Assembly: GCA_964539655.1 (NCBI GenBank)
Contig: CAZIJH010000003.1
Location: 12,113-76,112 of the forward strand
Direction of reading: 5' to 3'
Source of the DNA: an uncultured archaeon
GTDB taxonomy: Archaea; Aenigmatarchaeota; Aenigmatarchaeia; CG10238-14; SCSR01
DNA: 64,000 bases
A model generated the notes under the pieces. It had not been told where the DNA came from. It did no database searches and saw only the letters and a list, made by a program, of their open reading frames with translations. Positions 1,699-5,469 of the stretch are shown in pieces; the first letter of the stretch is position 1, and each line of letters starts with the position of its first letter. Made by a program: the position numbers and the translations under genes.

Positions 1699-1712
1699 CG
1701 AAAGATTTAAAT
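1699..1712 (+). promoter_or_regulatory. Candidate BRE/TATA promoter for the pre-23S transcript (may also serve the divergent gene)
   Basis: CGAAAGA followed by TTTAAAT. Confidence 0.5.
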
Positions 1713-1784
1713 GTTCTCACTGACTATAAAATTATTACTTCGGTGTCAGGTATGGCAGAATAAAAATCTGCATTGGCCTTTTGT

Positions 1785-1875
1785 CTAGCTGTGATTGTGT
1801 CCCAAAGTTCTGACATGATTCGTATTCTCGATTCAAAATCCAAAAGATGAAGACACCGGACACCTATTGAGCTGG
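1785..1875 (+). ncRNA. Box C/D guide RNA 1 in the 23S 5' leader (D guide predicted for U2552)
   Basis: Terminal stem CTAGC/GCTGG; C GTGATTG 1791-1797; D' CTGA 1810-1813; C' ATGAAGA 1847-1853; D TTGA 1867-1870; guide GGACACCT complementary to 5060-5067. Confidence 0.72.
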
Positions 1876-2070: not shown

Positions 2071-2110
2071 TGACACTATCATAGGATTAAGCTGGTCAAA
2101 GAGGTCTGGT
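2071..2110 (+). other. 5' arm of the 23S processing stem
   Basis: TGACACT-A-TCATAGGATTAAGCTG-GTCAAAG-AGG-TCTGGT pairs with 5431-5469. Confidence 0.9.
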
Positions 2111-4473
2111 TTCAACACCAGCCACTTGGTGGATGGCTTTGGCTTCGATTTGCTGAAGAAGGACGTGCCAAGCTGCGATAAGCTCGGGTTATCCGCATGG
2201 AGGATTCGACCCCGAGATCTCCTAATGGGATTCCTTCTCTTCGGAGAATTCCGCGAGGAATAGGAACGTGGTGAAGTGAAGCATCTTAGTCAACCATGGG
2301 AAAAGAAGACAATAGTGATGTCATTAGTAACGGCGAGTGAAAGTGACGGAGGGCAAACCGAACTTCCGCCGAAAGGCGGCAAGGATGTGGGGTTGTAGGA
2401 CTTGGGTCTTTCTCAAACCGCAGAGTCGAACTTCCCTGGAAAGGGAGGCATTAAAGTGTGACAGCCACGTAGACGAATGCGGGAAAGAAAATGCCGAGTA
2501 TCCTGAATAGCGTTTCTCGGATATGAAGCGCGAACCTGGCAGGATTAACTGCCAACCCTAAATACAAACGAAGTCCGATAGCGTACTAGTACGGTGACGG
2601 AACGCTGAAAAAAACTGCGCGAGCAGGGTGAAAAGAGTCTGAAACCAAGTTGGTATTAGTCAGTCATGGCGCGGAAGGTTCCAGCAGGAAGGAAAAAACT
2701 GCGAAGTTTCAGTACGATTGCTGGATTACAGTGTCATGACGTCCGTTTCGAAAAATGGGGCAGGGAGTTTGCCTCTGCGGCGAGGTTAATCGGTCTAAGC
2801 CGAGAAGCCGTAGCGAAAGCGACAGGGCCGTGACATCGCAAGATGCGTGGGCCGCCGTATGAAAGTGCGGGAAGTCGCTGGGGCAAGACCTGAAGCCGGT
2901 CGATCTAATCCTGGTTAGGCTGAAGTCCTGCGAAAGCAGGGTGGAGGGCCGTTACCGATTGTGAGCTGCCAATCCTTCGGGTGAGCCGGGATTAGGGGTG
3001 AAAAGCCTAACGAGACCGGGGATAGCTGGTTCCTCTCGAAATGCATGTAAGTGCAGTCTGGATCGAGCAGGCCCGTAGGGTAGAGTTACTAATTGGGAAG
3101 TCAAGGGTCGAAAGACCCAGCTTTGCTGTTAAACTCCGAACCTATTGGCTGCGTGGAAGTCTGGAATGAGTTAGTATGGTTAAGCTATACTGTCGAAAGG
3201 GGAACAACCCAAACTGAGGTTAAGGCCTCTAAATGTCAGCTGAACGTAGAAGGGAGTCTGAATCCACAAACAGTAGGGCTGTAGGCTCAGAAGCAGCCAT
3301 CAGTTAAAAAGTGTGTAATAACTTACCTACCGAGGATTTGGGCCCTTAAAATGGAAGAGACTAAGCTGACTGCCGAAACCCCAGCTTGAGAAAGAGTAGA
3401 GAGGCGTGCCGTGTGGACAGAAGCATCTGCGTGAGCAGTTGTGGACCGCGCGGCATTGAAGATCCTGCCATGAGTAGCAACATAGTTGAGTGAGAATCTC
3501 AACCGCCTAAAGGACAAGGGTTTGCCAGCAATGTATGTCAGCTGGCGGTTAGTCGGTCCTAACGCCGCACTTTACCGTAGCGGTGGAAAGGGAAATCGGT
3601 TAATATTCCGATACCATGAGAGTACGAATGCGGCAACGCAAGCCGCGATTCTGACGTTTCCGGATAGGGTGACGCAAGTCAACCGATACAGACCTGTGGA
3701 GTCTTGTAACGAGGAGAAACAGGTCAAAGCGGGAGCAGCCCTGCGTATGCAGGGTTCATCCGATTCCAGGAGCCCGTGAAAAGGAATCGCGGAAGAATCT
3801 TTCATGTCCGTACCGAGAACCGTAACAGGTGTCCATGCTGAGAAGGCAAAGGCGTGTTGGGTGAAACCAGTCTAGGGAAATCGGCAAATTAGTTCCGTAC
3901 CTTAGGTATAAGGAATGCCTGTTTCCCCGCAAGGGGAAGCAGGTCTCAGTAACAAGGGGTAAGCGTCTGTTTAACAAAAACGCAGGAGACTGCTAATGAG
4001 AAATCATGTGTATAGTCTCTGAGTCCTGCCCAGTACTGGTCGGTTAAAACCATTTTCAAGTGGTCTAAGCCCCAGTAAACGGCGGCAGTAACTCTGACTG
4101 TCGTAAAGTAGCGTAATCCCTTGCCGTTTAATTAACGGCCTGTCTGAATGGATTCACGACTTGCCCGCTGTCCCAGGCTGGTGCCCAGCGAAATTGCCAT
4201 TCTGGTGAATAAGCCAGAGACCTCCAGTGGGAAACGAAGACCCCGTAGAGCTTTACTGCAGTTTGTTGTTGTGGTAAAGTTTCTGTTGCATAGCGTAGCT
4301 AGTACCCGTCATAGGCTTAGGTTTTGGCCGAAAGCCGAGGGGAAAGTGTAACACTAGCCTTCAGGGACTTTACTGCTTACCTGCAAAGGGACAGCAGCAG
4401 ATGGGCAGTTCGGCTGGGGCGGTACGACCTTGAGAAGGTATCAAGGTCTCCCAAAGTTCAGCTCATCCGGGGC

Positions 4474-4685
4474 ATGGTGCAAGTCGCATTTTGCCTCGAG
4501 AAGGAGCAAAAGCTTTCTAATCGAGGTGTTTTCGGGAAATTTTCTCAGAAGCTTTGACGCGGTGATTATTACCGTTCCAGTCTGAAACAGAATGAAGACG
4601 GAGGTAGCTGATGAGCGTCCATAATGAGAATTTTTTATCCGAATACATTTTAATTACGATTTGTGATCGATTTGCATCACCCGAC
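4474..4685 (+). other. 23S rRNA BHB intron 1 (212 nt, helix 84 loop)
   Basis: Canonical BHB: TC-CGGG-GC^A / CCCG-AC^A-GA plus 12-bp stem TGGTGCAAGTCG/CGATTTGCATCA; splicing restores TCCGGG-GCAGAAA-TCCGGA. Confidence 0.93.
4556..4619 (+). ncRNA. Box C/D guide RNA 3 inside intron 1 (D guide predicted for U2438)
   Basis: Stem GACGC/GCGTC; C GTGATTA 4562-4568; D' CTGA 4582-4585; C' ATGAAGA 4592-4598; D ATGA 4611-4614; guide GAGGTAGCT 9/9 complementary to 4815-4823. Confidence 0.8.
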
Positions 4686-4857
4686 AGAAATCCGGAGTAG
4701 AGTGCAAACGCAAAAGCTGGACTGACTGGATTCCGCAAAGCGAGGAATCCAGCTGCGAAAGCATGGGTTAGCGATACATCGTGGACTCTTAATGGGTCCC
4801 GGTGGTCTAAGAAAAGCTACCTCGGGGATAATGGGCCCGTGGCCGGTGAAAGCCCAC

Positions 4858-4988
4858 AGTGGTTTTCGCTCCCACATTTGAATCTGATAGCAAGAGCATC
4901 AGTGTTCGGTCAAAAAAGAACACGAACACGGTGTTCTGAACTAGACGATCTTCCAATTCGAAGGAGTTGATATATTCCAAACGGGTAT
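4858..4988 (+). other. 23S rRNA BHB intron 2 (131 nt, helix 89)
   Basis: BHB: AA-GCCC-AC^A-GT / AC-GGGT-AT^A-TT; splicing restores GAAAGCCCACATTGACCCGG. Confidence 0.9.
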
Positions 4989-5087
4989 ATTGACCCGGCG
5001 CGTTGGTGCGTCGCTGTCGGCTCCCCCTCACCTGGCTGTGCAGCAGCAGCCAAGGGTACAGGTGTCCACTGGTTAAAAGGGGACGCT

Positions 5088-5121
<34 letters not shown>

Positions 5122-5430
5122 GCTATCTACTGGAGGTGCTGGTTGTCTGACCGGAAGGAGGAATAAGTACGAAAGGAACATCCCTCCGCGGCCTCTAGTG
5201 TATCGGTTGTTCATTGCAAAGCCGAGCAGCCAAGCCGTGCGCGGATAAATCCTGAAAGCATCTAAGGACGAAACCGCCCGGGAATAATAGACAACCATTC
5301 CGAATCTGACGCGCAAGCGCCGGTAATCGGACAAGGGCTCTCGTAGAAGACGAGTTTGATGGGAGAGGGGTGTAAGATCCAAGATTTCGATCGAGGATTT
5401 CAGCCCGCTCTTCCCAACAGCCTGAGGTTG

Positions 5431-5469
5431 GCCAGACTTTGATAAACAGCTTAATCCTATGAAGTGTCA
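5431..5469 (+). other. 3' arm of the 23S processing stem
   Basis: GCCAGA-CTTTGAT-AAA-CAGCTTAATCCTATGA-AGTGTCA is complementary to 2071-2110. Confidence 0.9.

Follow-up and report, generated by a model that had tools for sequence, protein, structure and literature searches.

Only a few rRNA modifications are clearly involved in how ribosomes assemble and function, and Um2552 is one of them. The uridine lies in the A loop of 23S rRNA, which has been described as a hotspot of modification in every domain (PMC7994747), and E. coli U2552 is the first nucleotide of that loop (PMC4644070). Two routes to the modification are known. The protein-only methyltransferase RlmE (also RrmJ or FtsJ) makes Um2552 without an RNA guide (Caldas et al., 2000, cited in PMC7994747), and box C/D guides for U2552 have been predicted in five of the seven archaea studied by Dennis et al. 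(2015; PMC4644070). A short stretch in front of the 23S rRNA gene of an uncultured archaeon had been read, from the letters alone, as a guide with a D box aimed at exactly this nucleotide. The locus thus raises the question of whether a 23S rRNA precursor carries its own guide for Um2552, and whether such a guide stands in for the protein.

The window, i.e., the whole stretch of DNA analysed here, has a length of 64,000 nucleotides (G000:C3:12113-76112) and belongs to an assembly of 0.77 Mb in 23 contigs (estimated completeness about 95.6%). The closest matches of its Nop5 protein in the species collection were Candidatus Aenigmatarchaeota MAGs (52-59% identity), and the source is therefore a DPANN-type archaeon. 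The DNA sequencing runs that contain the stretch are groundwater metagenomes. A 23S rRNA gene was identified on the forward strand (2107-5436; Rfam RF02540, 2430 bits); it is 3330 nt long, compared with 2987 positions in the model. No 16S rRNA gene was found beside it or anywhere in the assembly. Two insertions are present in the 23S gene, at about 4470-4700 and about 4830-4960. The 23S genes of relatives diverge at several sites in domain V, which suggests that introns are frequent.

The 23S leader (1679-2106) is a divergent intergenic region; the upstream gene is encoded on the opposite strand and starts at about 1678. The leader strand of the 23S processing stem (2071-2110, forward strand) pairs with the trailer at 5431-5469 (cofold -60.3 kcal/mol), and the element under study (1785-1875) lies in the leader upstream of this leader-trailer stem. 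A putative BRE/TATA promoter element, AAAGATTTAAATG, was read from the sequence at 1701-1713 (forward strand), placing the element about 50 nt downstream of it. In relatives, TATA-like motifs (TTTATAAAT/TTTATATA) precede a conserved leader start, CGGTGTC, by about 30-38 nt. From its position and from these motifs at the same distance in relatives, we infer that AAAGATTTAAATG is the promoter of the 23S unit. BLAST detected matches of the leader (approximately 1726-1796) to the leaders of G027 (86%) and G024 (81%). Together with a motif search in the upstream regions of relatives, it delineated a conserved 5' leader hairpin, CGGUG...CAUUG (1741-1778, forward strand), where the leader is presumed to begin. 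GGUGUC within this hairpin resembles the A-loop target, and it does not co-vary with the guide.

The leader element and its conservation

Judged by its sequence and by covariation among relatives, the stretch 1785-1875 is a conserved box C/D sRNA in the 23S leader. The sequence-only reading had noted a guide and a D box at this place; both are present, as parts of a complete, conserved C/D sRNA and not as a lone guide-plus-D-box. All parts are read on the forward strand, in the order stem, bulge, RUGA.., 12 nt, CUGA, loop, AUGAAGA, 13 nt, NNGA, stem. The 5' strand of the terminal stem (CUAGC, 1785-1789) pairs with the 3' strand (GCUGG, 1871-1875) through C-G, U.G, A-U, G-C, and C-G. Bases U1790, G1791, and U1792 form the 3-nt bulge of a k-turn, the last two of them being the start of the C box variant GUGAUUG (1791-1797), and G1793 and A1794 are the sheared G.A partners. 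The 5-bp stem, the 3-nt bulge, and the G.A/A.G pairs thus make up a k-turn next to the stem, as is typical of C/D RNAs. Two further C/D features are the presence of internal D' and C' boxes and guide spacers of about 12 nt (12 nt for D', 13 nt for D). The D' spacer (1798-1809) precedes the D' box CUGA (1810-1813), which was assigned from the sequence and the alignment of relatives. A 33-nt D'-C' insertion (1814-1846) folds as a small hairpin and corresponds to 3-9 nt in most relatives. It is followed by the C' box AUGAAGA (1847-1853), identical to the C' box of a second unit in the leader and to that of a unit in a 23S insertion, by the 13-nt D guide (CACCGGACACCUA, 1854-1866) with A1862 as N5, and by the D box variant UUGA (1867-1870).

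The boxes of this genome are degenerate. With GUGAUUG as the C box and UUGA as the D box, a U.U stands where the canonical pair is G-C. No convincing 23S target was found for the D' spacer, all of its Watson-Crick runs through N5 in 23S rRNA being shorter than 7. An Rfam scan of positions 1650-2150 with E values up to 10 returned chance-level matches only and no family at the gathering threshold; the best of them, snoR10, scored 19.5 bits (threshold 65, E = 6.2).

Conservation of the unit was followed in leaders, defined as the regions upstream of 23S from relatives of the same family and order. The C/D unit was present in the 23S leader of 36 of the 38 relatives with leader sequence. RUGA in the C box is invariant (37/37 sequences), and the D box ends in GA in 32 of the 37 sequences and in UA in the other 5. 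Positions 5 and 6 of the C box vary in concert with positions 2 and 1 of the D box (types GC/GU/AU and CG/UA): the combinations observed were GC/GC, GC/GU, AU/AU, GU/AC, and UG/CU, with U.U remaining in other cases, and in family f1 both pairs are standard in 94% of cells. The terminal stem varies from AGC/GCU to GGC/GCC and beyond. When the columns of terminal stem, k-turn pair, and internal helix were counted jointly in 37 sequences, the covariation score was reached by 0 of 500 shuffles, and sliding the partner by 1-3 columns lowered the share of paired cells from 67% to 34-44%. An invariant RUGA combined with covarying stem and box pairs marks the element as a k-turn next to a helix, i.e., as a C/D RNA.

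A covariance model (R1) was built from the 37 sequences and detected a single copy of the sRNA in G000, the genome that holds the window. It detected no copy in G004, G029, G003, and G005, the weak match in G004 being devoid of the guide. In the class sample the model yielded no convincing match beyond the order, but since the known copy of G040 escaped it as well, it is too insensitive to indicate absence. In G004 and G029, both of genus g5, no A-loop guide was detectable in the leader or elsewhere. These two genomes have the same helix 92, gave no RlmE match, and have kept the second leader unit.

The element might also be regarded as a leader hairpin with a k-turn, serving as an L7Ae-binding processing signal, whose complementarity to helix 92 is coincidental. 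The sRNA of G000 does fold as a hairpin in which GUGUCC of the D' spacer (1799-1804) pairs with GGACAC of the D guide. In family f1 the D' spacer (1798-1809; GUGUCC-like) is complementary to the RNA's own D guide (1858-1863), with 82% of the cells of this internal helix paired and double changes at two of its pairs. Nevertheless, the fold energy is unremarkable (z = -1.29; 20 of 200 shuffles fold equally well or better), RNAalifold, run on 18 f1 sequences, predicted no consensus structure, and the guide has been kept in families f4 and f5 although their D' spacers are unrelated to those of f1. As described below, guide and helix 92 also covary across clades and orders, and a coincidental match is extremely improbable. 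The C/D sRNA is the reading retained here, and the complementarity between D' spacer and D guide in f1 is possibly a self-masking feature, not the function of the RNA: pairing of the spacer could sequester the D guide.

Pairing of the D guide with helix 92

The initial assignment of guide, D box, and target was confirmed at every coordinate. The octamer GGACACCT occupies 1858-1865, TTGA follows at 1867-1870, and the complement AGGTGTCC occurs at 5060-5067 and 3827-3834. The fifth base upstream of TTGA is A1862; it stands opposite T5063, the equivalent of E. coli U2552. Helix 92, the A loop of 23S rRNA, was located by the Rfam alignment and the guide pairing at 5058-5072 (forward strand). Against the archaeal LSU consensus cgGGc/UGUUC/gCCcg it reads ACAGG/UGUCC/ACUGG, with U5063-C5067 as the loop and U5063, the predicted 2'-O-methylation site, as the first loop base. 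This helix is atypical: its loop is UGUCC, not UGUUC, and two pairs, the outer A5058.G5072 and the loop-closing G5062.A5068, are flagged as non-standard. It had been proposed that the guide matches this genome's atypical helix 92. The match itself stands; the atypical helix characterizes the class as a whole and not G000 in particular.

The duplex in G000 comprises 8 contiguous bp (N2-N9 with 5060-5067) plus N12 and N13, with mismatches at N1, N10, and N11. The 8-mer count in the window is 5, compared with 0.81 expected, and 331 of 1500 shuffled guides (22%) also find, at some place in 23S, a Watson-Crick run of 8 bp that includes N5. At this rate the G000 match alone is not significant, and significance has to come from the relatives. 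Guide and target were compared in the 30 genomes for which both the guide and helix 92 were available. Because the frame is constant (CACC, 2 nt, 4-nt D box), U2552 stands opposite N5 in 30/30. Positions N3-N6 are likewise paired in all of them, and N2-N9 are fully paired in 26. The exceptions are A.C at N7 (G033 and G053) and N2 (G049 and G044); in several relatives the duplexes extend over 10-12 positions. Loop UGCCC occurs with guide GGGCA in G013, G015, G023, G040, and G045, and loop UGUUC with guide GAACA in G011 and G032. Among the loop sequences that were added, that of G001 matched (UGCCC with GGGCA) and that of G018 did not.

A maximum-likelihood tree was computed from 1.9 kb of 23S (36 rows), and the matched guide/loop states were found in separate, well-supported clades. 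Coordinated double changes distinguish G026 from its sisters G013/G023, G040 and G045 from G060/G050/G054/G056, and G011 and G032 from G031/G010. For guide and loop together, at least three coordinated double changes are thus set against two uncompensated lineages, G033 (with G018) and G053, which have A.C at N7. By covariation, helix 92 is shown to be the evolutionary pairing partner of the D guide, with U2552 in methylation register. Tracking of helix 92 by the guide in relatives had been suggested as a check on the assignment, and compensatory changes were indeed found in at least three clades and in other orders.

The wider class was represented by a sample of 121 genomes. The atypical helix-92 pattern was found in 39 of them; the canonical pattern was restricted to a 1.9-kb contig of one other genome and to contig C16 of G000. 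Outside the order, the helix-92 loop is mostly UGUUC. Thirteen leader-side stretches were obtained from other orders, and the 23S start could be located in nine. The guide motif is contained in eight of these nine leaders and additionally in stretch L100; it reads GAACACC + 2 nt + NNGA in eight stretches of other orders, L100 included. At the G065 locus, helix GGGUGUCC is accompanied by the leader motif GGACACCC. The search expression is expected to match by chance about 0.08 times per leader. The guide therefore appears to follow its target across the class.

The second copy of the 8-mer (3827-3834, forward strand) had been put forward as an alternative or additional target. Its position 3830 is presumably about E. 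coli U1621. In G000 the pairing of N2-N9 at 3830 is identical to that at 5063, and an 11-nt stretch, ACAGGUGUCCA, is common to both sites, such that the G000 guide could also, or instead, methylate U3830. The match is specific to G000, and the site is widely variable among relatives: the guide fully pairs N2-N9 in only 3 of 34 genomes. Failure is usually at N6-N7, adjacent to the would-be modified base, and these positions are mismatched in most of family f1. Furthermore, the two extra pairs at N12 and N13 belong to the helix-92 duplex and are absent at 3830. The site at 3827-3834 was accordingly rejected as a conserved target, and we regard methylation of U3830 in G000 as unlikely.

Proteins and the predicted route to Um2552

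The core proteins of a C/D RNP are encoded in G000, namely fibrillarin (C2:25002-25628, 275.8 bits), Nop5 (C2:25678-26316, 223.9 bits), and L7Ae (C2:8477-8752, 99.7 bits). No match to RlmE/FtsJ exceeded the cut-off in this genome (PF01728, best score 22.6 bits). Three sub-threshold FtsJ matches turned out to be generic Methyltransf_11/23/25 proteins. The search was extended to 61 genomes of the family and order (G000 and 60 relatives, all searched as incomplete MAGs), and RlmE was not found in them; the best FtsJ score, 37.5 bits, belonged to an RsmB/F protein. The NCBIfam model rrmJ (TIGR00438) reached at most 20.9 bits in G000 and 26.1 bits in the 61 genomes, with only the SAM-binding part matched. 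One of the partial rrmJ matches was the fibrillarin of G000 itself. The suggestion that the genome might be without rlmE was thus upheld by both models. True full-length FtsJ proteins (187-200 bits, 200-211 aa) were identified in 2 of the 121 class genomes, G098 and G115, which belong to one genus and are without assembled 23S.

Taken together, we think it probable that the leader C/D sRNA guides formation of Um at U5063 (U2552) in place of RlmE; the methylation step is what we infer. The sRNA would be transcribed within the 5' leader of pre-23S rRNA, upstream of the leader-trailer stem. L7Ae would bind the k-turn (stem 1785-1789/1871-1875, 3-nt bulge, C/D G.A pairs) and the C'/D' motif, and Nop5 and fibrillarin would complete the RNP. 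As covariation shows, the 13-nt D guide pairs with helix 92 along its 5' strand and loop, bringing A1862 opposite U5063, and fibrillarin would then 2'-O-methylate this uridine. In such a scheme the guide RNP would apparently have taken over the job of the protein RlmE in this lineage, and the supply of the guide would be tied to transcription of its own substrate. The sRNA body, protected by the RNP, may survive trimming of the leader. This last step is modelled on established C/D biology: for C/D genes embedded in longer transcripts, survival of the RNP-protected body during trimming has been described (PMC7994747, section 9). Several features speak against the scheme, i.e., the 8-bp duplex, the degenerate boxes, the 33-nt insertion, the lineages with A.C at N7, and genus g5 without a copy.

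A different role has also been considered, in which a leader RNP of C/D type would act mainly in cis as a folding chaperone or timer, keeping helix 92 unpaired in its 5' strand and loop during assembly, with methylation absent or secondary. The guide is co-transcribed with its target, and the RNA of family f4 also pairs about 48 nt downstream, with 23S 5108-5117. A layout with two nearby targets has been tied to folding (PMC7994747). The A.C mismatches at N7, tolerated in two lineages, point in the same direction. Pairing as such needs no register, whereas N5 falls exactly on U2552 in 30/30 genomes and in other orders; in addition, fibrillarin has been retained and RlmE is missing. A function of this kind in place of guided methylation is therefore very unlikely, and methylation of U2552 remains the preferred role of the sRNA.

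The RNP type, the target nucleotide, and the N+5 rule are the same as described for the U2552 C/D sRNAs of hyperthermophiles (PMC4644070). The sRNA of the present study differs from them in its degenerate boxes, its covarying non-canonical stem, and its atypical helix-92 target. RlmE/RrmJ/FtsJ acts on the same nucleotide as a stand-alone enzyme, and its gene was not found in G000 and the 60 relatives searched. In yeast, Um2921, the equivalent of U2552, is made with the independently transcribed snoRNA snR52, with the protein Spb1 as a back-up. Both snR52 and the leader sRNA are thus C/D guides at the same A-loop uridine, snR52 being eukaryotic and transcribed on its own. Reportedly, Tang and co-workers described in 2002 two k-turn RNAs of Archaeoglobus fulgidus, 16S-D and 23S-D, which come from the rRNA spacers, are formed by leader-trailer ligation, and are without an assigned methylation target. 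Like the sRNA studied here, they would be k-turn RNAs from pre-rRNA flanks, in their case stable ones, and the two are set apart here by description.

A C/D guide in the intron of an archaeal tRNA-Trp is said to act on its own precursor (D'Orval et al., 2001, cited in PMC7994747). Both that guide and the leader sRNA are encoded in the precursor of their own substrate. The former has a tRNA as its substrate and is located in an intron; the latter is directed at 23S rRNA from a position in the 5' leader. The contexts listed for archaeal C/D genes in section 9 of PMC7994747 are independent promoters, ORF overlaps, clusters, tRNA dicistrons, and tRNA introns. A pre-rRNA leader, where the present gene is located, is not among the contexts given there. 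Our literature search found no C/D sRNA described in an archaeal rRNA leader or in Aenigmatarchaeota, although supplementary files could list such RNAs. C/D-guided Um2552 formation in archaea was already known; the leader location and the class-wide conservation appear to be undescribed. The pre-rRNA leader would hence be an added genomic context for archaeal C/D genes.

An archaeal lineage with a reduced genome appears to secure Um2552 by means of a guide within the precursor of the rRNA to be modified. At this locus nature provides a case of a guide changing together with an essential ribosomal loop (UGUCC/UGCCC, G.A-closed, off the archaeal consensus). The locus may also serve as a compact system for the question of whether C/D RNPs act on their own precursor. 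For annotators, the unit offers a rule by which degenerate sRNAs may be spotted in DPANN genomes.

Further C/D units and transcripts of the locus

A second C/D unit was observed in the leader at 1957-2070. It consists of a stem GGUU/AACC, C box UGAUGA, D' box CUGA, a 50-nt loop, C' box AUGAAGA, and a D-like AAGA. Its guide (2041-2053) can form 10 Watson-Crick pairs with 23S 5108-5117, placing N5 opposite 5111, which corresponds to about E. coli A2600 by a gapless count from U2552. Among 38 relatives, 35 have the guide motif of this unit in their leaders; in family f4 the motif serves as D' guide in the very sRNA that bears the A-loop guide. A further C/D-like unit was noted in the first 23S insertion (4556-4620: GUGAUUA, 13 nt, CUGA, 6 nt, AUGAAGA, 12 nt, AUGA). 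Its D guide can form 9 Watson-Crick pairs with 4814-4822, with N5 opposite 4818, just upstream of the peptidyl-transferase ring GGGGAUAA.

A strict scan for the whole architecture returned six C/D candidates in the G000 genome, three of which lie in the 23S locus; the reversed and the complemented genome gave none. The scan pattern was modelled on the units of the 23S locus, and the enrichment there is biased accordingly. Another canonical-looking C/D candidate was seen outside the window, at C3:410. Tentatively, the 23S unit might carry its own guides throughout this class of small-genome DPANN archaea (two in the leader, for U2552 and for about A2600 of the peptidyl-transferase region, and in G000 a third one in the insertion), and these may act in cis on the nascent precursor before the leader is cleaved off, replacing RlmE and accounting for most of the organism's C/D repertoire (three of at most six). 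We consider such a general arrangement possible, though less likely than not.

Contig C16 of G000 (L098, 2.7 kb) contains an LSU rRNA fragment of bacterial type with a canonical A loop; this contig was probably mis-binned. The RNA runs contain only a small share of the words of the stretch. In RNA contigs from four runs, the matches begin at 2099 and lie in conserved 23S. In two runs, contigs from the RNA libraries match from 2099 on with 4 differences and are unlike the window before this position. The junction at 2099 could represent the ligated joint of a circular pre-23S rRNA.
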